A stretch of DNA of 64,000 nucleotides from Eledone cirrhosa (lineage: Eukaryota). The DNA lies in the NCBI GenBank assembly GCA_964016885.1, contig OZ024749.1, positions 9,796,001 through 9,860,000 on the forward strand, in the 5' to 3' direction. Numbering within the stretch: the stretch's first letter is position 1; each line of letters starts with the position of its first letter. The position numbers were made by a program, and so were the translations under genes. Shown one piece after another: positions 29,324 through 52,400 of the stretch. A model generated the notes under the pieces. The model searched no databases. It saw only the letters and a list, made by a program, of their open reading frames with translations, and was not told where the DNA came from.

Positions 29324-29462
29324 CAATTCCATATTTTGTTTTGTAGAAATTCTTAGTAAATTCGTCACAGTTACAGAGCTTGAGGGGTCGGCCATACACA
29401 CTGATGATGTCACCGAGTCGTAAATCTTCAGCAGAGTAATAGGGAATATTTACTTCACCTAT
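29324..29462 (-). CDS. EFHC2: EFHC2-like, exon 6
   Basis: ctaaaag|ATA..G|gtatgt; IGEVNIPYYSAEDLRLGDIISVYGRPLKLCNCDEFTKNFYKTKYGI; 139 nt. Confidence 0.88.
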
Positions 29463-29496
29463 CTTTTAGCAGAAAGAAAAAAATATATATATATTT

Positions 29497-32400
29497 TACT
29501 ACAGGTATTGAGTTGATGGTGAGTCCTGTACCACTGTGTGGATTAGGGGGCACTACAGGTAGTGTGTTGGTGGTGAGTCTTGTACCACTGTGTGGTGTAG
29601 GGGGCACTACAGGTGGTGTGTTGGTGGGGAGTCCTGTACAACTGTGAGGAGTAGGGGGCACTACAGGTATTGAGTTGATGGTGAGTCCTGTACCACTGTG
29701 TGGAGTAGGGGGCACTACAGGTATTGAGTTGATGGTGAGTCCTGTACCACTGTGTGGAGTAGGGGGCACTACAGGTAGTGTGTTGGTGGTGAGTCTTGTA
29801 CCACTGTGTGGTGTAGGGGGCACTACAGGTGGTGTGTTGGTGGTGAGTCCTGTACAACTGTGAGGAGTAGGGGGCACTACAGGTATTGAGTTGATGGTGA
29901 GTCCTGTACCACTGTGTGGAGTAGGGGGCACTACAGGTATTGAGTTGATGGTGAGTCCTGTACCACTGTGTGGAGTAGGGGGCACTACAGGTAGTGTGTT
30001 GGTGGTGAGTCTTGTACCACTGTGTGGAGTAGGGGGCACTACAGGTGGTGTGTTGGTGGGGAGTCCTGTACAACTGTGAGGAGTAGGGGGCACTACAGGT
30101 AGTGTGTTGGTGGTGAGTCCTGTACCACTGTGAGGAGTAGGGGGCACTACAGGTAGTGTGTTGATGGTGAGTCCTGTACCACTGTGTGGAGTAGGGGGCA
30201 CTACAGGTAGTGTGGTGATGGTGAGTCCTGTACCACTGTGAGGAGTAGGGGGCACTACAGGTAGTGTGTTGGTGGGGAGTCCTGTACCACTGTGAGGAGT
30301 AGGGGGCACTACAGGTAGTGTGGTGATGGTGAGTCCTGTACCACTGTGTGGAGTAGGGGGCACTACAGGTAGTGTGTTGGTGGGGAGTCCTGTACCACTG
30401 TGTGGAGTAGGGGGCACTACAGGTAGTATGTTGGTGGGGAGTCCTGTACCACTGTGAGGTGTAGGGGGCACTACAGGTAGTGTGGTGATGGTGAGTCCTG
30501 TACCACTGTGAGGAGTAGGGGGCACTACAGGTAGTGTGTTGGTGGGGAGTCCTGTACCACTGTGAGGAGTAGGGGGCACTACAGGTAGTGTGTTGATGGT
30601 GAGTCCTGTACCACTGTGAGGAGTAGGGGGCACTACAGGTAGTGTGGTGATGGTGAGTCCTGTACCACTGTGAGGAGTAGGGGGCACTACAGGTAGTGTG
30701 TTGGTGGGGAGTCCTGTACCACTGTGTGGAGTAGGGGGCACTACAGGTAGTGTGTTGGTGGTGAGTCCTGTACCACTGTGAGGAGTAGGGGGCACTACAG
30801 GTAGTGTGTTGGTGAGGAGTCTTGTACCACTGTGTGGAGTAGGGGGCACTACAGGTAGTGTGTTGATACCACTGTGTGGAGTAGGGGACACTACAGGTAG
30901 TGTGTTGGTGGTGAGTCTTGTACCACTGTGTGGTGTAGGGGGCACTACAGGTAGTGTGTTGGTGGTGAGTCCTGTACCACTGTGTGGAGTAGGGGGCACT
31001 ACAGGTAGTGTGTTGGTGGGGAGTCCTGTACCACTGTGTGGAGTAGGGGGCACTACAGGTAGTGTGGTGATGGTGAGTCCTGTACCACTGTGGAGTAGGG
31101 GGCACTACAGGTAGTGTGTTGGTGGTGAGTCCTGTACCACTGTGAGGAGTAGGGGGCACTACAGGTAGTGTGTTGGTGAGGAGTCTTGTACCACTGTGTG
31201 GAGTAGGGGGCACTACAGGTAGTGTGTTGGTGGGGAGTCCTGTACCACTGTGAGGAGTAGGGGGCACTACAGGTAGTGTGTTGGTGGGGAGTCTTGTACC
31301 ACTGTGTGGAGTAGGGGGCACTACAGGTAGTGTGTTGGTGGTGAGTCCTGTACCACTGTGTGGAGTAGGGGGCACTACAGGTAGTGTGTTGGTGGGGAGT
31401 CTTGTACCACTGTGTGGAGTAGGGGGCACTACAGGTAGTGTGTTGGTGGGGAGTCCTGTACAACTGTGAGGAGTAGGGGGTACTACAGGTAGTGTGTTGG
31501 TGGGGAGTCCTGTACCACTGTGTGGAGTAGGGGGCACTACAGGTGGTGTGTTGGTGGGGAGTCCTGTACCACTGTGTGGAGTAGGGGGCACTACAGGTGG
31601 TGTGTTGGTGGGGAGTCCTGTACAACTGTGAGGAGTAGGGGGCACTACAGGTGGTGTGTTGGTGGGGAGTCCTGTACAACTGTGTGGAGTAGGGGACACT
31701 ACAGGTAGTGTGTTGCTGGTGAGTCCTGTACCACTGTGTGGTGTAGGGGGCACTACAGGTAGTGTGTTGGTGGTGAGTCCTGTACCACTGTGAGGAGTAG
31801 GGGGCACTACAGGTAGTGTGTTGGTGGGGAGTCCTGTACCACTGTGTGGTGTAGGGGGCACTACAGGTAGTGTGTTGGTGGTGAGTCCTGTACCACTGTG
31901 AGGAGTAGGGGGCACTACAGGTAGTGTGTTGATGGTGAGTCCTGTACCACTGTGAGGAGTAGGGGGCACTACAGGTAGTGTGTTGATGGTGAGTCCTGTA
32001 CCACTGTGTGGAGTAGGGGGCACTACAGGTAGTGTGTTGGTTGGGAGTCCTGTACCACTGTGTGGAGTAGGGGACACTACAGGTAGTGTGTTGGTGGGGA
32101 GTCCTGTACCACTGTGTGGAGTAGGGGGTACTACAGGTGGTGTGTTGGTGGGGAGTCCTGTACAACTGTGTGGAGTAGGGGACACTACAGGTAGTGTGTT
32201 GCTGGTGAGTCCTGTACCACTGTGTGGAGTAGGGGGCACTACAGGTAGTGTGTTGGTGGTGAGTCCTGTACCACTGTGGGGAGTAGGGGGCACTACAGGT
32301 AGTGTGTTGATGGGGAGTCCTGTACCACTGTGAGGAGTAGGGGGCACTACAGGTAGTGTGTTGGTGGTGAGTCCTGTACCACTGTGTGGTGTAGGGGGCA

Positions 32401-32996
32401 CTACAGGTAGTGTGTTGGTGGTGAGTCCTGTACCACTGTGAGGAGTAGGGGGCACTACAGGTAGTGTGTTGGTGGGGAGTCCTGTACCGCTGTGAGGAGT
32501 AGGGGGCACTACAGGTAGTGTGTTGGTGGGGAGTCCTGTACCACTGTGAGGAGTAGGGGGCACTACAGGTAGTGTGGTGATGGTGAGTCCTGTACCACTG
32601 TGAGGAGTAGGGGGCACTACAGGTAGTGTGTTGATGGTGAGTCCTGTACCACTGTGTGGAGTAGGGGGCACTACAGGTAGTGTGTTGGTTGGGAGTCCTG
32701 TACCACTGTGTGGAGTAGGGGACACTACAGGTAGTGTGTTGGTGGGGAGTCCTGTACCACTGTGTGGAGTAGGGGGTACTACAGGTGGTGTGTTGGTGGG
32801 GAGTCCTGTACAACTGTGTGGAGTAGGGGACACTACAGGTAGTGTGTTGCTGGTGAGTCCTGTACCACTGTGTGGAGTAGGGGGCACTACAGGTAGTGTG
32901 TTGGTGGTGAGTCCTGTACCACTGTGGGGAGTAGGGGGCACTACAGGTAGTGTGTTGATGGGGAGTCCTGTACCACTGTGTGGAGTAGGGGGCACT
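29497..32996. repeat. Minisatellite, 54-bp unit, about 65 copies
   Basis: GGGGCACTACAGGTAGTGTGTTGGTGGTGAGTCCTGTACCACTGTGTGGAGTAG; intronic. Confidence 0.95.
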
Positions 32997-33261
32997 GAAG
33001 TCCCCTTGAAACTGCCCTTCATTCCATGATAGAAAACCTTCAGGTTCCAAACACCAGCTTCATAATGAGAAAGTAAAATATTTTACTAAATCCCTCCAAA
33101 TTTTTTATTATTTTTCAAAATGATTTGAAAATTTTAGGCAGTTTCTTTCATTAGAAATACACTAAATTTGTTGCTTATTTTAAAGTGTTTATATTTGTCT
33201 AAAATCTTTCATCATAACTTTATGTAAGCAGCTTTGTTAAGTTAAGCCCCAAACATCAGAT

Positions 33262-35660: not shown

Positions 35661-36073
35661 CACCCCACTAATCTAGCCACCCCACCACTCTAGCCACCCC
35701 ACTAATCTAGCTACCCCCACTAACATGTGCAGCACTAACATGGCTAGTGTTAGCCCTATGTACACAATTAGTGAGAATCATATTGGTCGTGCTTTTCATA
35801 TCTTGGCTCAGTTTTTATGCCCTTCCTATCACCAACCACTTTACAGCGTGTACATATGTATGTGTGTGTATGTGTGTGTTTGCATATAAATGCATGTATA
35901 CACACACACACATATATACATATATCATCATCATCATCGTTTAACATCTATCTTCCACTCTAGCATGAGTTAGATGGGTTTGTCCCATTTAGAGGCAAGC
36001 TGTGTCGGTGACCCTGTCTCGTTCATATAGGACTGTTTCTTGCTGGTTTTCTATGGCTGGATGCCCTTCTTAG

Positions 36074-36252
36074 TGCGCAACGCAACGCAGCGCAACACAA
36101 CACAACACAAAACCACAAAACAAAACAACACAACACAAAACAACACAACAAAACAACACAACACAAAACAAAACAACACAACACAAAACAACAAAACAAC
36201 AAAACAAAACAACACAACAAAACGCAACGCAACGCAACGCAACAACAAAACA
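36074..36252. repeat. Degenerate pentanucleotide repeat (CAAAA/CAACA/CAACG)
   Basis: Directly visible; starts ~25 nt into intron 4. Confidence 0.9.
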
Positions 36253-36275
36253 ATCCAATCCAAGAATTTGGAGAC

Positions 36276-36527
36276 CTTTGGTATTTTTGATCTTCGTACC
36301 AAGACAGATCCCATTTCTTGGCCACAATTTGGAGGAAACACCTCCCGAACTTCCATTGTGTCGTCAGATAAGAAGTAGAAGAGGATACATTTATGGACAA
36401 TACCACTTTCACTTGGAGTGTCATCCCAGGTACAGTAGAAACGTAGGACGTGCATGTCGTGTTCCAGAAACTTCTTCAGGGTGTCGATCCTCTTGTAGGG
36501 TCTCAATGGCATTTGGGCCTCATCTAT
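36276..36527 (-). CDS. EFHC2: EFHC2-like, exon 4 (second DM10 domain)
   Basis: gtacag|ATA; IDEAQMPLRPYKRIDTLKKFLEHDMHVLRFYCTWDD..YFLSDDTMEVRE..RRSKIPK|gtctcc (weak donor); 252 nt. Confidence 0.88.
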
Positions 36528-37507
36528 CTGTACACAAAGAAATAAAGAAGACCACAGATTGAGGACGGTTTGGTAGGGGGAGGGGTTTTGTTGTTGTTGT
36601 TGGTGGTAGTGGTGGTGGTGTAGTGGCGGTGGTGGTGGTGTAGTGGCGGTGGTGGTGGTGTAGTGGTGGAGGAGGGGGATGGTGGGGTTGTAGTGGTGTA
36701 GTGGGGGGTAGTAGTCGTGGTGGTGGTGTAGTGGCAGTGGTCGTGGTGATGGTGTAGTGGGGGGGTAGTGGTCGTGGTGATGGGGGGGGGGGTAGTTATG
36801 TAGTAGTAGAGGTGGCGGTCCTCCTCCACCCCCACCCTCTACTCAGGCACTCCCAATTCCTTTGTCCCCCATCTTGTCATCACTTTTTCTGTGAAAGGCC
36901 CCACACCAACCACTACACCCAGTCCTTCCTACCCAGAATGTTGACCCACTGGAACTGACAGGGACCTCGTGAAGGCCGTGACCCCTTTCACTTCTTGCAG
37001 ACCTACAAAGTAAAAATAATAATTGTTTCTACTTTAGGCACAAGGCCAGCAATTACCCAGTGTATTACTGGTACTTTATTTTATCGACCACGTAAGGATG
37101 AAAGGCAAAGTTAACCTCGTCAAGATTTGAACTCAGAATGGCAAGGGCCGTAACTCTATGCGTCAAAGCATGGCGTCCGACCCTCTGCCAATTCACCGCA
37201 AAAATAATAATAATAATACACTCCCTCCCTTCCTTCTTGTGTCTTCAAGAGGAGTTGATTGGCAGCCATTTAATCATCATAATCATCTTCATAATCATCA
37301 ATGTTTTGGGTCTCAAAGGTACTGAGAAGGTTATGGACACTGCCCCTTCCCTTTCTAACTAAACACCATCATCATCATTCTATGCTGACATGAACTAGAC
37401 AGGTTGTCACAGTCCAAAATTAAATGTGTCACAGACACATCTCCTCCATACATTCCATCTTGGGGAAAGGTTTTTTTACAGCTTCATGTCCTTCCTAATG
37501 CCAAACA

Positions 37508-43012: not shown

Positions 43013-44238
43013 TATATTTCTTTATTAGCCCCAAGGGCGCACAAGAAAAGGGGACAAAACAAGGACACATGCCAGGGATTTTACATACAATCGTGTAAAA
43101 ATATTGAAACAAACAAATTTAACAATTGAAATCCCCAATAGGGGGGAGGTGCCACAAATGGGTTGTTTAATACCCCGTCGATAGAACAACCCTCAACTTC
43201 AGGAGCGGGTTATGCAAGTGCTCCTTTCTTCCTTTTGCTCTCTTCTTCAACCTACAGGTTTATATACAAAGAAGGCCCAATTACACGGGCCATTTTTGCC
43301 CCATTCACCCACCTTTCAGTAAATTTACTGGGGTGCAGTGCCTTTCTCTCCACTCTGATTCTCCTTCTAAAGTGGAATCTGAAGAAGGGAATGAGTTGTT
43401 GTCCGGAGAGAAAGGCATCTGTCCTCAGTCCTCTCAATCTCGTCCACCATATAACCTCTTTCACCATAGCCACTGTACAGAGGAAAACCACCTCTCTTTT
43501 GTTTTTGAAAGAAGTTGGCAGTTTGATCCTTACTATGGACTCAGCAGTCAACTGGATTTGTCCCATACACGACAGCAGTTGTTCTGCATAGTTCCACAGG
43601 TCGGTTACGCCCGGGCAGTGTACAATTGCGTGCAAGACGGTTTCAATGTCCTGCCCACATTTTGGACACGTCCTCTTGGAAGGATCCCTACCGGGGCATC
43701 CGTGCCTGTAGATCTTGTCACGAACTGGCATAGCTCCTCGGTAGCACTGCCAGGCCAGGGACCTCTGGAAGTTGTCCATAGGTCCCCGGCGGAAAGTCCT
43801 ACCAAACAGACTGGTGAGTTCGTTGTCTTCGACACCCAGAGTCTCTCCAAGCACCTCGTTGCCCTTGTGACGTACTAACCCTTTATAGAATGTCGAAGTG
43901 GAGTCTCCACTGATTGCTGTGCCCGCTTGACAGAGGCATGTGAGCGCCTGAGCGCATTCAATGTGCCAGGCGCCCATTTTTTTCGGTCTCCGCTTGACCC
44001 AGGACTGCAGCTCCGTCAGCAAGGCAAGTTGCTCGAAGGTCTGTCTCACAAACGGTGCCCACACCGGTTGTTCGGTGAGGAATACCTGTAGATGCCGTAG
44101 CCTCAGTGCATGTTTGCGCATCATCAGCCACGGCATTCCCAGCCCTCCGTTGGAAGGGTGCTGACAGCAGACAGATCTCCTCACCAGTGGAGCCTGCTTC
44201 TTCCAAAGGAACTGGAAGCGCATGCGTTCCATCTTGGT
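43013..44238 (-). mobile_element. 5'-truncated Tx1/L1-clade LINE, copy 1
   Basis: FQFLWKKQAPLVRRSVCCQHPSNGGLGMP..CPKCGQDIETVLHAIVHCP (zf-RVT); AATAAA at the 3' end; inserted in (GACA)/(GATA)n. Confidence 0.85.
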
Positions 44239-44273
44239 GACAGATAGATAGGCAGACAGACAGACAGACAGGC

Positions 44274-44364
<91 letters not shown>

Positions 44365-44380
44365 GAGACAGAGAGATAGA

Positions 44381-45203
44381 TATATTTCTTTATTTACCAT
44401 AAAGGCATAAAAAGAAGGGACAAATACAAAGGGGGAGTTTACATACAATCGAGTAAAAAGGGTATAAAATGAAAATAATCGAAAACAACCTCAAAAGGGA
44501 GGGGACGTGATGGGGGTTGCACACACCCCCGAAAAAGTGTGCAATCGTTTGCCCAGGGAGCACATGGAGAAGGTGCTCCCCTCTCCTTCACTTCTTTACC
44601 TACAGGATGGTATACAGAGAAGGCCCATTTACACGAGCCATTCTCGCCACTATCACCCACCTTTCATAAAACTGCATGTGGCCAAGCACCTCTCTCTCCA
44701 TTCTTATCCTTATTCCGAAGTGATATCGGAAGAAGTAGACCAGACTATGGCCAGAGAGGAAGTTGCCTGACCTCAGACCTTTCAATCGTGTCCACCAAAC
44801 AACCTCTTTCAACATGGCTATTACGCACAGAAAAACCGCCTTTGCTTCCTTTGTGAAGAGGGAGGCGGTTTGATTGTCATCACGGACTCGGCGGTCAATC
44901 GAATCGGCGCCACCCACGACAGCAGTCGTTCGGCGTAGCCCCACAGATCAGCCACGCCCGGACATTGCACCAATGCGTGCGCAACGGTTTCTTCGTGACG
45001 CACGCATCTAGGGCAAATCTTTTTCGAGGGATCCCTGCCCGGGCGCCCGTGTCTGTAGAGCCTCTCTCGAACGGGTAGAGCCCCCCGGTAGCACTGCCAG
45101 GCTAGTGACTTCTGGAAGTTGTCCATTGGTCCCGGGCCGAAAGTCCTACCGAACAGGTTGGCCAGTTCGTCCTCTTCCATGTCCAGCGACTCTCCAAGGG
45201 TTT
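44381..45203 (-). mobile_element. 5'-truncated Tx1/L1-clade LINE, diverged copy 2
   Basis: GPMDNFQKSLAWQCYRGALPVRERL..CPRC..ETVAHALVQCP; same 3' terminus AATAAAGAAATATATCTATC. Confidence 0.85.
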
Positions 45204-45265
45204 GGGAGACAGATAGATAGATAGACAGACAGACAGATATTTAGATAGAAAATAAGTTTTCTTAC

Positions 45266-45307
45266 ATTCTGAGAAAAATTATTGCCAGGTAGAAAAGGTA
45301 ACGCCAT
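45266..45307 (-). CDS. EFHC2: EFHC2-like, coding exon 1
   Basis: MALPFLPGNNFSQN|gtaag, matching the recalled EFHC2 N-terminus (MALPLLPGNSF). The 11 exons total 2286 nt = 761 aa plus stop. Confidence 0.9.
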
Positions 45308-45472: not shown

Positions 45473-46404
45473 ATATACTTCGTTTTTGAATTTGTTTTCC
45501 CAAAGTATAACAATATCGAAACGGCCTGAGCTCAGCCGTCGAGCTCCTGAGTCTTTTCCTATTTATATCTATATAGATATATGTCTAAGTTTGGAGAATG
45601 ATTAAGTTTTAGTTATAATATATAACCATGTTTGAGGCTGGAATTTAATTCAGAGATTTGAAGGGTATGTTTGTTTCGTTTTCTGATTGTTTCGTTTGTG
45701 TTTGTTTTTTTTGTAATATTTTTCGTTATTTGAATATAGATTTCTAAAAAGTGAATATGGTTTTAATAGCGTCTATAGAGAATATGAGGGAGTGGGAGGA
45801 AGGGGAGGAGATGTGAGAGATTGAAATATATGAGTGACAGAGTGAAAGTGATAGAATAAAAGATCAACGGGGGAGTATCAGAGAGAAAAGGAGAGAAATA
45901 AAAGACAGGCAGATAGTTAAGAGCAGCAGAGTATGTGAGAGGGAGAGGGGGGGGGAGAGAGAGAGAGAGAGAGAGATGTATACAAAAGAGATAGAAAGAA
46001 CAGAGAAGTTGATAGATACACATTAATCGTGATTTTAGTATTATTCTTCTCCCACTTATTCCTGAGAGGGTCGTGGGGACAGAGTCCTCAAACACTCTTT
46101 CCAGCAGCTCCTGTCAGAAGCAACTGTCTCCAACTGATCCGGCTGGACCCCCTAAGTGTGACCAGCTAAGCTCGTGAGTGTTATCCAATCATCTTGCTCG
46201 AGGTCCACCCCAGGGTCTCTTGTCGGTTGGTTTTACCCGTAAAATCTTTCCAGTGACGTAGCTAGGACGAGGCGAGTAAAAACCACCTCTAAATATGCCT
46301 CGTCTTCGCGGGTTTGACAAAGTACCAGATTGGTGGCTGGCGCCAATAAGACCATCGAAACTGAAACTATAATATGAGAAAAACAACAACAAAAAAAAAC
46401 ATAC

Positions 46405-46690
46405 TGCACTGTTCTTTGCGCGGGTTAATAAGGGACAGGTCCAGGCCTTAGGTAGAGGGGCCTGTTCGAAAAATATATTGCAGTCTCCATTTCATGCCGC
46501 AAAAACTGGCGATGAGCCTGCGACATGTCCTGGGAGGCATCGGATGGACGCACAAAGGTTGCGTATACCGAGGCCCCAAATAGCGTCCGGAAGGAAGTAA
46601 ACCTTGACAATTGGAACCTGGAACATCACAACCCTTAAAGGAGCAGTAACTAATGGGTGAGGCCAGATGCTACCGACTAGATATTTAGTG
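46405..46690 (+). mobile_element. RTE 5' UTR and start of AP endonuclease (fragment)
   Basis: LTIGTWNITTLKG...LMGEARCYRLDI. Confidence 0.6.
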
Positions 46691-46850
46691 TTAAAAAATA
46701 AAAAGTAATAGTGAAATAATATTTTTTTAAATGGTGCTGGAGGACATGTGACCCTAAGATAAAACTTATTTAGTTTATATGTAAGACCATCACTGCCCCT
46801 AATGCTTCACGGCTGCATTAAATCGGTCGAAACACGTGTGTAGCCGATTC

Positions 46851-46944
46851 AGGGTCACCTACTTCTGAGAGTGGTTAGTACCCAAGTTTGTCGACCTCAT
46901 CGTGGTGGACCCTAGAAATCGATCTCTGATCAGGCGAACGACTA
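46851..46944 (+). ncRNA. HDV-like self-cleaving ribozyme candidate
   Basis: P1 AGGGTCA/GGACCCT; P2 TTGTCG/CGACTA; P3 ACC/GGT; L3 TCATCGT; P4 GATC-TCT-GATC; J4/2 GGCGAA. All elements are in canonical order. Confidence 0.65.
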
Positions 46945-47305
46945 CAAAGTGAGACAGCAACGGCAAATCAACAAAATACTTATTGTGGTAGCTATAGCAT
47001 GTTGTTAGTCCCTATGAATAATATTTTTTTAAAAAACTTAATGTAAATAGGGGAGGGGAAAATGAGAGAAAGATAAATAAAAAACGCAAAACAGAAAAAA
47101 GGTGAATGTGAAAGGAGTGTTATGAGGGATTAACAGAAAGAAAATAGATATATTGATAGAGAGTGTTTGTGTGTGTATTATGTGTGATAAGAAATATGGG
47201 AGACGTCTCTCATATAAAATATATAATTTTAATGAATACAATTGACAAAACAAAGAAAGAAAAATGTAAAGTTTGAATGTTACTGTTACACGTATATATG
47301 CACGC

Positions 47306-47339
<34 letters not shown>

Positions 47340-48427
47340 CATGTACACATACACCACACACACACACACAAGCAATTGTCGTCTGTTGAGATCACGTTTC
47401 TACGAAGTTTACGTTTTCATTTTACTTTTTTCATTAGCAATGTTCTATAACAGAATTGTGAACATGATTCGATTAAATAAGTTATTATTTTTTTGTCTGG
47501 TTTTATTCAACAATTTATTTTGTTCAAAATGTTTTTCGCTGGTCGAGCGACCAAATAGAAACTTGGTCGTTGTAGTAAAACTTTTAAACCAATTCAAGTA
47601 ACAAAGGGAAAGTATTCGTGCAGACCTTGTTGTGTATGTACCAAGATTTACTTCCCTTTGACTATAAAATTGATCAGATTGCTGACATTGTTAAGGTGTT
47701 TCCCCTTCACTGTAGTAAATATTGCATCATTTCTGTACTTCCTTGGAGGAATTCACAGTACCACCTCTGTTTATAAACATATGATACACGCCGCTAATCT
47801 CTCCCGTTGCTCTACCGACTCAAATATTTCTGTAATGTTCTGAATATGGTTCAGGTATTTATTTATTATTTTCTTTTACTCATATCAGTTCTTAGACTGA
47901 GGCCATCCTCGGGCACTGCCGCCCTCCAGTATTTATATTTTTCAAGTTTGGTACATACTTTGTTGATTGTTTGCTTTTGTTATTGTTTTTTAACTGTTTT
48001 CTGTTCATGCCTGCCGCCGTCATCACCTCAGGTGTCCTCCGTCCCGTGACTGCTGTTTTCTTCGGCAGGCCGCCTGAGGAAGGAGCCCCGTGAAGTAGGG
48101 TGGTTGCTGTCCATTCTCCACACCAGTGCCTTCACCAGGGTGCAGCTAAGGCATGCCGCTGGGGTTGGGGAGTGAAGTATCTCACTTCGCCCCCACTCTT
48201 TCGTTGCTTATTTTCTATTTTGTTTTTGTTTTTTTTTGTTTTTCCTTTCGCTGGGGTTATTTACGGGATCGATAAAATAAAATACCAGTAACGGACTGGG
48301 TCGATTTAATCGACTTTTCCCTCCCCCAAAATTGTTGTCCTTGTGCCTAAATCATTATTATGCGTAATATTTATGTAAATAAAAATTAATCTTACGTTTT
48401 GCTGACACACACATCTATATATATGTG

Positions 48428-49040
48428 TCATCATCATCATCATCGTTTAACGTCCATTTTCCACGCTTGCATGGGTTAGACAGGTTGTCCTATTAGAGGC
48501 AAGTTGGATCAGGTGACCGTATCTTGCTCATATAGAACTGTTTCTGGCTAGGTTTCTACGGCTGGATGCCCTTCCTAACGTCAACCACATTTACAGTGTG
48601 TGCTGGGTGTTTTTTGTCGTGACACCTACATGACCACTTTACAAGGTGGACTGGATGCATTTTGTTTACAGTGTAAGAGTAGTGTGGACAGGACTGGATG
48701 GGTGGGGGTATAGTGGTGAAAAGGTACCTACTAGATGTATGTTTGAGTCTGTGTACATAGGAAGGCGTGTCTTCTGTATTACTGCATTACTCCAAAGATC
48801 TCGATCCTGTGTCATTGTCTTTGAGAGGTTCAAATGCCCAAGGTCAGCTTTTATTACCTTGTCTCAGGTCTTCCTGAGTTTTCCTACTCCATAGCTTCTA
48901 TCAATTTCAATTGCCCTGCACCTTTTTATACAGCTGTCGTCCTTCATATACATCACATGACCATACCAACGTATCTCTTCTCTTGCACACTGCATCTGAT
49001 CCCTCTTATACCTAATTTCTCTTTCAGATCATTTACACTT
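48428..49040 (-). mobile_element. Older RTE 3' end with 3' UTR
   Basis: Homologous to 49070-49830; (GAT)n tail. Confidence 0.75.
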
Positions 49041-49044
49041 TGTT

Positions 49045-51195
49045 CATCATCATCATCATCATCATCAGGTTTAGCGTCCGTGTTCCACGCTTGCATGGGT
49101 TTGGACGTGGGGTTTTCCCACTTGAGGCAAGAGTGGTTGTCTTGCTCGCATAGGACTGTCTGGCGGGTTTTCTACAGTTGGATGCCCTTCCTAACACCAA
49201 CCACATTTACAGTGTGGGGCTGGGAGGTTTTTACCGTGTTGCCTACACGGCCACATTACAGCGTGGACTGTCTGGCGGGTTTTCTACAGCTGGATGCCCT
49301 TCCTAACACCAACCACATTTACAGTGTGGGGCTGGGAGGTTTTTACCGTGTTGCCTACACGGCCACATTTACAGCGTGGACTGTGTGTTTTTTGTCGTGA
49401 CACCTACACGATCTCATTTGTTTCGGCCTGGATGTTGTGGGACCAACATAACTGTACATTGAAAGGGGCGGTGTGGATGGGGTGGAGGTGGTGGGACGGG
49501 GGGGTGTTTTGATAGAGATGCCTACTGACTGTAGTAGGTTTTTACTTTGTATTTAGGTAAGGCGGGTCTTCTCTATTACTGAGTACCGCCAAAGGTCTCG
49601 GTCCAGTGACATTGTCTTGGAGAGGTGTAAGCGTGTGAGGTCGGAATTTATCCGCTCGTCCCATGTTTTTCTGGGTCTGCCTACTCCGTGGCTACCGTCT
49701 ATCTTTATTGCCCTGCACTTTGTTATACAGCTGTCGTCTTTCATGCGCATCACGTGACCGTACCAACGTAGCCTTCTCTCGAGTAAACAACAACTGATCC
49801 CTCTTATTTCTAATTTTTTCCTTAGTTCGTTTATGCTTTGCCGTTCACGTATATTACTATTGCACATCCAGCGGAGCATGCAAGCTTCGTTCCTCTCTAG
49901 TCTGCGTATATCCTCTGCACACAATGCCCAGGTCTCACTGCCATGCAGCATTGCTGTTCGTATGCAGGCATCGTATAACCTGCCTTTCATTTTTAGGGAG
50001 AACCCTCTAGCGGCTAATAGTGGTATAAGCTCTCTGAACTTTTTCCATCCAGTTCTGACTCTAGCAACTGTACTTTCAGAGCACCCTCCCCCACTGCTGA
50101 TTTTGTCACCCAGGTAACGGAAGCTGTCCACTATTTCTATAGAACCCTCTGCGCAGTTGAAGGAGCTAGTATTTTGTGGGCACTTGCTGCTACTTATTGC
50201 ACCAGAGCACCGGCCACATGTAAAATCTATGTTCTTAGTTAGCTTACCTGTGATCCCACTACATCTTTTATGCACCCATACTTTGCATTTGGGACATAAA
50301 ATGGAGTTTCTACCTACGCCTTTCCTACACACTGAGCATGGCCATTTCCCAGATGGGACTGCCGCCTTATTTTCTTTCCTACAAACTAGAACTTTAGTCT
50401 TAGCCAGGTTAATTTTAAGGCCTTTTGATTCTAGGCCGTGCTTCCATGTTTGGAATTTCTTCTCTAGTTCGGTCATTGATTCAGCTATGAGCGTTAGATC
50501 ATCTGCGTATAGGAGTTCCCATGGGCAGCCGGTCTTGAACTCCTCTGTTATAGCCTGAAGGGCAATAATAAATAGTAGGGGGCTAAGAACAGAGCCCTGA
50601 TGGACACCAACTTTTACGCTAAACTCTTCACTATATTCGTTGTTAATTCTAACCTTACTGACTGTTTCTTTATACATGGCTTGTATAGCTCTCACAAGCC
50701 ATTCGTCAACACCTAGTTTTCTAAGAGACCACCAGATAATGGAACGGGGGACTCTGTCGAAGGCTTTCTCCAAGTCGACGAAAGCTAAGTATAGGGGTTT
50801 ACTTTTAGCTAGGTACTTCTCCTGTAGTTGTCGTACAATGAAAAGAACGTCTGTGGTACTTTTGCCTGACACAAATCCGAACTGCATTTCATCTAGATCA
50901 ATTCTCTCTCTGATTAGTTGCGCTATTACTTTTTCCGTGACCTTCATGACCTAGTCGATTAATTTAATGCCTCTATAGTTACTCCTATCTAGGGCATCTC
51001 CTTTTCCCTTAGAGCAGTTAACGATGATGCTGCTACGCCAGTCCTTCGGAACAACCCCATTCTGTACGACTTGGTTAACTATCCGGGTGACCATGGTGTG
51101 TCCCACCGAACCAGATGCCTTCAGCATCTCAGCAACTATTTCCGAAGGACCAGCCGCCTTACCCGTCTTCATATCTTTGATTGCCTTGCTTATTG
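49045..51195 (-). mobile_element. 5'-truncated RTE LINE, best-preserved copy (RT, PHD-like insert, 3' UTR)
   Basis: The 464-aa ORF 49553-50947 is in frame with 50951-51172 across one TAG. Motifs NYRGIKL, QFGF, DLEKAFD, GVHQGSVLSP, LLYADD, FRYLG. Confidence 0.95.
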
Positions 51196-51209
51196 TACTA
51201 CCCTGGACT

Positions 51210-52400
51210 AGTTGTACATATATATTACTATTACATATCCATCAGAGCATGCATGCTTCATTTCTTTCCAGTCTTCACAGGTCCTCTGCACAGTGCTCAG
51301 GTCTCACTACTATGTAACATTGCTGTTTATATACATGCATCATACAATCTGCCCTTCAATTTAAGGGGAAAACCTTTTGTAGCTAGTAACAGTAGTAGCT
51401 CTCTAAACTTTCTCCATCCCGTTCTTACTCTGGCTACTGTACTTCCAGAACACCCTCCTCCACTACTGATTTCATCACCCAGGTAACAGAAAGTGTCGAC
51501 TATTTCTATAGTACTGTTTTGACATTTAAAGGAGCTAGTGTCCAGTGGGCACTTGCTACTTACTGCACCTGAGCATTGGCCACATATAAAACCTACATTC
51601 TTTGATAGCCTGTCTGTGATCCCACTACATCTTTTATGAACCCATAGCTTGCATTTGGGACATAGAATTGAATTTCTACTAACTCCCTTCCTGCACACTA
51701 AGCAAGGCCATTTCCCAGAGGAGATCTGGACCCTGTTTTCCCTTCTAATTACTAGAACTTTAGTCTTTGACAAGTTAACTTTAAGACCTTTAGATTCTGG
51801 GCCATACTTCCATGTTTGGAATTTCTTCTCTAATTCTGTTATAGATTCAGTTATGAGAGTTAGAATGTCTGCATTCAGATGTTCCCATGGGCAGCACTTC
51901 TGTAATAGCCTGTAGGTCAATAATAAATGGAAGAGGGCTAAGGATGGAGCCCTGATAAAAACATACCTGTATGCTAAATTCTTCACTATAGTCATTGTTA
52001 ATTCTGACCTTCCTGACTGTTCCTCTATACATGGCTTGTATAGCTCTCACAAGCTACTCCTAGTTTACTATGAGCCCACCACATAATGGAATGGCGGACT
52101 CTGTCAAAGACTTTCTCCAAGTCAACAAAAGCTAAGTATAGGGGTTTACTGTTAGTTAGGTACTTCTGCTGCAGTTTCCCCACAAGGAAGAGGATACTTT
52201 TACCTGGTACAAATCAAGGTTAATTCAGTCCCTAATCAGCTGTGTGATAACTTTTTCTGTGACCTTAATGCCTCTATAGTTTTCTCTATCTAAAGCATCT
52301 CCTTTGCCCTTGTAGCTGTTAACGATGATGATGCTATGCTAGTCATTGGGTATGACCCCATTTTGTATTACTTGGTTTACTATACGTGTGACTATGGTGT
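51210..52400 (-). mobile_element. Degenerate RTE LINE fragment
   Basis: Same RT and PHD region with frameshifts. Confidence 0.85.

Follow-up and report, generated by a model that had tools for sequence, protein, structure and literature searches.

The window, a stretch of 64,000 nucleotides from Eledone cirrhosa, carries on its plus strand a 94-base motif (46851..46944) with the nested double-pseudoknot layout of HDV-like ribozymes, in which P1, P2, P3, P1.1, and P4 are all present in order. The motif is far beyond chance. We infer, with a probability of roughly three in four, that a retroelement, probably of the non-LTR type, left this stretch behind as the decayed remnant of its self-cleaving 5′ end, and that the copy is likely weak or inactive now.

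Elements of the R2, RTE, Baggins, and L1Tc families carry HDV-like ribozymes at their 5′ ends (PMC6765202), and the candidate is likely a further, decayed case of what is already known from retroelement 5′ ends. If our reading is true, one more animal lineage and one more repeat family would be associated with HDV-like retroelement ribozymes, and the motif would be a handy tag for locating the 5′ end of its family. It would gain weight only if this copy proved to be active and its place next to the promoter of the neighboring EFHC2-like gene proved to be conserved. Active RTE, Dong-R4, Hero, and R2 families are described for Octopus vulgaris (PMC13282606). In the literature searched, which lies mostly outside subscription journals, no publication dealing with HDV-like ribozymes of octopus or cephalopods was found. 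The main text of two octopus repeat papers, one of them PMC13282606, does not contain the word ribozyme, and the motif was not found in those supplement files of PMC9115989 that were searched.

Anatomy of the motif

The elements of the motif are as follows.

46851..46944, plus strand: whole motif, decayed copy (found by descriptors and, at 32.1 bits with a rough E of about 2.5e-8, by a covariance model)
46851..46857, plus strand: 5′ strand of P1, 6 of 7 Watson–Crick pairs with 46907-13; predicted cut 5′ of A46851
within 46851..46857, plus strand: alternative cut register, 5′ of G46852
46859..46874, plus strand: P1.2 hairpin in J1/2, four Watson–Crick and two G·U pairs, loop CUGA
46888..46893, plus strand: 5′ strand of P2, four contiguous Watson–Crick pairs, U·U, and U-A
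46894..46906, plus strand: P3-L3-P3, with P3 at 46894-96/46904-06 (three Watson–Crick pairs) and L3 at 46897-903
46907..46918, plus strand: 3′ strand of P1 (46907-13), 3′ strand AG of P1.1 (46914-15), and J1.1/4 AAA
46919..46933, plus strand: P4, with U46919·G46933, the C46920·A46932 mismatch, four Watson–Crick pairs, and loop UCU
46934..46944, plus strand: J4/2 GCGAA with the candidate general acid C46935, then the 3′ strand of P2 (46939-44)

A preliminary description of this motif had been made from the sequence alone. Each of its element coordinates was checked against the sequence and is correct. The parts that it named were confirmed, but it skipped positions 46916-20 (AAATC), which, by comparison with natural motifs, fit J1.1/4 (AAA) and two more P4 positions. 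The deviations that it listed (A-U at +1, A·G at the top of P1, U·U in P2, a one-pair P1.1) are real.

P1 is formed by A-U, three G-C, U-A, and C-G pairs followed by A·G, which amounts to 6 of 7 pairs; alternatively, A46857 is bulged and C46858 pairs with G46907, which gives seven. P2 could alternatively be extended through a 3-nt bulge to 46946-48. P1.1 consists of the single Watson–Crick pair C46898-G46915 and the mismatch A46899·A46914, and the core of P4 is formed by GATC-TCT-GATC at 46921-31. One mismatch each is thus found in P1, P1.1, P2, and P4. The active-site set is present: L3 provides U46897 (U20) and G46902 (G25), while GGCGAA at 46933-38 provides C46935 (C75) and A46938, the A three bases past it. 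The folding energy does not stand out (z 0.15 to 0.70), which is what a nested model should give for a pseudoknot. As a possible source of P1, a longer inverted repeat (46845-74/46892-921) was considered; it is not significant (268-922 of 5,000 shuffles).

Rarity and resemblance to natural motifs

The fold was described by descriptors, the thresholds of which were chosen after the candidate was seen. With G·U pairs allowed, 5 of 150 and 48 of 2,697 order-2 Markov windows were matched, and the only match in the real window is the 46851..46944 site. The Watson–Crick-only descriptor matched none of 2,697 simulated windows. When P1 was removed from the descriptor, there were matches in 21 of 2,018 simulated windows, and in one of 2,018 when J4/2 was set to GCRNA. 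Since the descriptors were fixed post hoc, a second, model-based test was added.

Two patterns, which fixed L3 and J4/2 and were likewise chosen after the candidate was seen, retrieved at least 172 phage loci (L124-L295). Among the 172 phage loci listed, 45 carry a full HDV-like motif when at least 6 of 7 P1 pairs and a P2 run of at least 4 are demanded, with 47 distinct motifs. Thirty loci were picked by hand for a covariance model (R1); 31 sequences were aligned and 22 used, after removal of eight with a short or misaligned P4 and of one near-duplicate. R1 covers P2, P3, and P4 and omits the 5′ strand of P1. Its helices covary, with 94 cells changed on both sides (0 of 500 shuffles), and 22 of 23 held-out phage loci score between 26.7 and 46.1. 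R1 scores the candidate at 32.1 bits (E about 2.5e-8, a rough value), of which the share contributed by L3 and J4/2 is partly circular because the training patterns fixed both; the next best match in the window has 12.4 bits. Because R1 lacks the 5′ strand of P1, the candidate's P1 match (6 of 7 pairs) counts in addition. The AG-AAA junction and its spacing to J4/2, neither of which was built into the descriptors, are as in natural motifs, and U20, G25, and C75 agree with natural examples as well.

Among the phage loci listed, 2 of the 47 motifs have an A-U pair at +1 and 6 have GCGAA as J4/2. P1 is fully paired in 45 of these 47, and 44 have a P2 run of at least 5. A U-A/C-G P1.1 occurs in 11.

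The HDV-like fold proposed in the preliminary description is supported by the rarity of the descriptor matches and by the R1 score. An Infernal-type search for HDV-like ribozymes, which it had also called for, was positive with our own model R1 (32.1 bits) and negative with the Rfam models: HDV-F-prausnitzii (RF02682) scored 15 bits (E 1.3 on 221 nt), far short of its cut-off of 44, the CPEB3 model gave no match, and none of the HDV-like Rfam models, which are narrow, reached its gathering score anywhere in the window. Neither the descriptors nor the covariance model found another HDV-like match in the 64 kb. Exact core patterns matched 88 metagenome loci and 4 loci in viral contigs, and no relative was found among the matches listed; flank identity is at most 0.38 in the best 25 of these 92 loci, many of which are in bacterial coding sequence.

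Repeat family, genomic setting, and origin

Depth was analyzed over 46500-47250 at 80% likeness, using three contig sets from one sample and one RAD run from a second sample. In the three runs of the first sample, contig depth, which is not copy number, exceeds the unique level 19- to 29-fold between about 46885 and 46935; the second sample contributed one RAD read. Summed contig depth is 171-190 at 46907 versus 6-10 in the unique flank, with 158-182 at 46890-915 and 120-144 at 46916-41. It is 17-30 at 46866 (in J1/2), 31-47 both at 46812-63 and at 46942-67, and at the unique level at 46968-93. The mean edges of the pile are estimated at about 46884 and 46934, which corresponds to the region from the 5′ strand of P2 to J4/2.

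about 46885..46935, no strand assigned: stretch common to a multi-copy family in the same genome (contig depth)

This pile of contigs indicates that a related family exists in the same genome. The search for other copies revealed a multi-copy core, but no second copy of 46740-46970 was found within the window by blastn or nhmmer. Three insertions are listed in related contigs; two of them are in predicted loops (3 nt in the P1.2 loop at 46866, 1 nt in the P4 loop at 46926) and the third is inside the 3′ strand of P1 (46907). Most family contigs leave the P1 5′/J1/2 region and the 3′ flank uncovered, and such core-only coverage is unlike the uniform decay of one young family. Homology among the copies starts, for the main depth, near 46885, and lesser depth reaches upstream of 46851. 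The multi-copy depth of 33-47 just upstream of the predicted cut (46812-63) is unexpected for a strict 5′ end. A short multi-copy peak is seen further upstream at 46750-46795 (depth 334-469, about 15 contigs).

The motif is surrounded by transposon debris, and the repeats appear octopus-like.

46041..46260, minus strand: decayed RTE 3′ end (38.5 bits, 0 of 100 shuffles), with four more copies in the window
46484..46700, plus strand: likely RTE-type 5′ region and start of an APE endonuclease, decayed, in very high copy (depth hundreds to thousands)

The RTE 3′ end is presumably of the Expander/Rex3-like type. A TWN motif within 46484..46700 aligns to the endonuclease at locus L100 (3 of 500 shuffles). 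The HDV-like motif is located about 110-150 nt behind this same-strand RTE-type 5′ fragment and beside the opposite-strand RTE 3′ end, a setting that had been missed in the preliminary description. Reverse transcriptase (RT) fragments at 48708-52395 are on the minus strand only; one of 465 codons (49553-50950, minus strand) is RTE-type and has a PHD finger behind the RT domain.

Several further features of this region were recorded. Two adjacent plus-strand hairpins (46257-46380; 11-bp and about 9-bp stems, z −1.5) are situated between the minus-strand RTE 3′ end and a CAA-rich run and have no other copy in the window. After the A/CAA-rich run, 46395-46440 (plus strand) has what we take to be a resemblance to a P1-less twister, in the place where the RTE-type fragment likely has its 5′ end; the twister reading of 46401-46440 has no Rfam match. 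Truncated twister ribozymes have been reported from RTE 5′ ends (PMC7761336, PMC8501958). Just 5′ of the predicted cut, a 9-bp hairpin (46811-46846, plus strand, z −2.1) contains GGTCGAAAC and the palindromic CACGTG. It is, as we see it, loosely like a Penelope-type hammerhead, and the hammerhead reading of 46800-46846 has no Rfam match. At 29375-33080, about 65 copies of a 54-nt unit form a tandem array that is open in a 1,179-codon minus-strand frame without a Pfam match. Eukaryotic RTE/LINE sequence was encountered in bacterial records (L093-L103), namely in a plasmid record (L093) and in small contigs of genomes G001, G002, G004, and G005; this is likely contamination.

The preliminary description had considered the motif to be an orphan retroelement 5′ end. 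This is plausible in view of the multi-copy core and of the lack of a same-strand ORF in the 1.5 kb downstream, whereas no target-site duplication came to light. The three plus frames of 46945-48455 were searched, and neither an element ORF (endonuclease or RT) nor a Pfam match was found, as had been claimed for the region directly downstream; the rest of the element would have been lost at this site. A 36.8-bit endonuclease signal downstream vanished under local composition (21 of 500). For a target-site duplication at the 5′ end, the best flank match was equalled by 768 of 2,000 random pairs. A 17-nt direct repeat (46715-31/47017-33) was rejected as such a duplication; of 63 segments of the window, 24 contain exact 17-nt repeats at a spacing of 200-400 nt.

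In the source element, a plus-strand host read-through transcript would fold into P1, P1.1, P2, P3, and P4. With C46935 as the putative general acid and a Mg2+ ion near U46897 and G46902, the RNA would be cut 5′ of 46851, which would yield an element RNA with a defined 5′ end. By analogy with R2, RTE, Baggins, and L1Tc, the freed element RNA may then be reverse transcribed. The roles of G25 and C75 and the general-acid/Mg2+ mechanism are taken from PMC13635239.

It is conceivable, though unlikely, that the motif is a true HDV-like ribozyme which is internal to another kind of repeat or heads a very short non-coding retroposon, rather than a 5′ end broken off from a long LINE. Such a retroposon would have about 130 nt and a CAA-like tail at 46955-80. 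The extra depth extends upstream over 46812-63 and ends downstream at about 46967, no ORF follows the motif, and a CAA-rich run is seen by eye after P2, all of which would fit; the missing target-site duplication speaks against it, and the upstream depth may belong to a different repeat.

We consider it improbable that the motif is not a ribozyme at all but a fold that arose by chance from decaying RTE coding sequence (a C-terminal RPRGRP-type or an endonuclease motif), an origin that would also account for the core being multi-copy. Given the resemblance of plus-strand frames to RTE motifs, this origin was put to the test. One plus frame reads RPHRGGP across L3 and P1, the RTE 5′ fragment is just upstream on the same strand, and an Expander-type C-terminal profile gave 19.4 bits, a score reached by 17 of 300 shuffles. 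In simulations of decayed coding sequence, the P3 and L3 core arose in 5,335 of the 679,720 C-terminus copies and in 11,754 of the 220,106 endonuclease copies, but the full Watson–Crick-only motif arose in none of either set. Three coding readings (RTE C-terminus, endonuclease GDFN region, endonuclease end) failed the shuffle tests. A general C-terminal profile, built from 124 of 150 RTE proteins retrieved, scored at background (120 of 300 shuffles), whereas two known decayed copies, used as positive controls, gave 0 of 100. The endonuclease profile was equalled by 17, 29, and 14 of 200 and by 62 of 300 shuffles, BLOSUM alignments by 16-186 of 200, and the three frames have no Pfam match. As the coding references are few and distant (for the endonuclease only two, L100 and L102, both from contaminant contigs), the probability of a coding origin is low and not zero. 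Protein searches with the two decayed RTE fragments gave no match. Viral contigs searched with RTE queries contained no relative, nor did genome contigs searched with an Expander-type alignment. A PDB search of one frame returned only kinase matches at E 0.5, and distant blastn against plasmids only short chance matches.

Activity, the EFHC2-like neighbor, and known systems

Given the mismatches in P1, P1.1, P2, and P4, the copy at 46851..46944 is likely weak or dead, and in our judgment detectable cleavage by this copy is possible yet rather doubtful. A single P1 mismatch has been linked to lower or lost cleavage in other HDV-like ribozymes, while in R2 ribozymes the top of P1 is mismatched in a quarter of cases and P2 in a third (PMC3774820). 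By this analogy, the P1 and P2 mismatches alone need not mean that the candidate is inactive. J1/2 has 30 nt, including an unpaired linker of 11-13 nt, and P2 is short; drz-Agam-2 constructs with a long J1/2 linker and a short P2 were slow (PMC4908430). Positions 46846-50 in the 5′ flank are predicted to form pairs with 46915-20 and to extend P1 over the cut site, which would take G46915 from P1.1. With the 5′ flank present, P1 is the dominant predicted helix (probability 0.84-0.86). An exact 8-nt complement of 46851-58 is found at 46748-46755 (plus strand). According to prediction, the two pair if the RNA ends at 46860, and P1 wins in longer RNA.

45267..45307, minus strand: first coding exon of the EFHC2-like gene, ATG at 45307-45305

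The ATG of this gene is on the opposite strand at a measured distance of 1.54 kb, in agreement with the approximately 1.5 kb given before. A DM10 domain is encoded in ORF 36051-36842, further along the same strand; the name EFHC2 is tentative and rests on the N-terminus. Two tandem LINE C-terminus fragments (zf-RVT; 43252-45240, minus strand), joined by GACA/GATA microsatellites, are just within the first intron.

The earlier suggestion that the motif might cut divergent transcripts found no support, given the mismatches in four helices and the predicted pairing of the 5′ flank across the cut site. We regard it as very unlikely that an active, host-co-opted ribozyme cuts transcripts divergent from the EFHC2-like promoter: orientation and the 1.54 kb distance would permit this, U20, G25, C75, and P3 have stayed intact, and P1 dominates among the predicted helices, but four helices are mismatched, the predicted flank pairing hides the P1.1 G, the layout with long J1/2 linker and short P2 is of the slow type, and the surroundings are repeat debris. 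Still less credible is the combination that the motif heads a new family of very short non-coding ribozyme retroposons and that this copy still cuts EFHC2-divergent RNA as a co-opted antisense terminator.

Considered as a relic of a retroelement 5′ end, the candidate shares the order of the five helices, 7-nt P1 strands, and a 3-bp P3 with the ribozymes of non-LTR 5′ ends (R2, RTE/drz-Agam-2, Baggins, L1Tc), and it is multi-copy in a repeat-rich animal genome as they are. Over 46895-905, the candidate agrees at 10 of 11 bases with the sequence that is most conserved in R2 ribozymes (PMC5035012), and a P1.2 helix is present in J1/2 of both the candidate and drz-Agam-2 (PMC4908430). Unlike these ribozymes, the candidate has an A-U pair at +1 and four mismatched helices and was found without ORF, element body, or target-site duplication.

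HDV-F-prausnitzii (RF02682) and the phage HDV-like motifs have in common with the candidate P3 ACC/GGU, AG as the 3′ strand of P1.1, the AAA junction, and a GCKAA J4/2. The phage motifs are presumably those called "theta". The candidate differs from both in its A, where they have U, opposite the P1.1 A, and in its eukaryotic repeat setting; its J1/2 has 30 nt, compared to 2-6 nt in most phage motifs among the loci listed. This likeness does not imply common descent.

The J4/2 of the CPEB3 ribozyme is GCGAA. Like the candidate, the mammalian CPEB3 ribozyme has one Watson–Crick pair in P1.1 (PMC13635239). CPEB3 is a single conserved intronic copy, whereas the candidate belongs to a repeat family.
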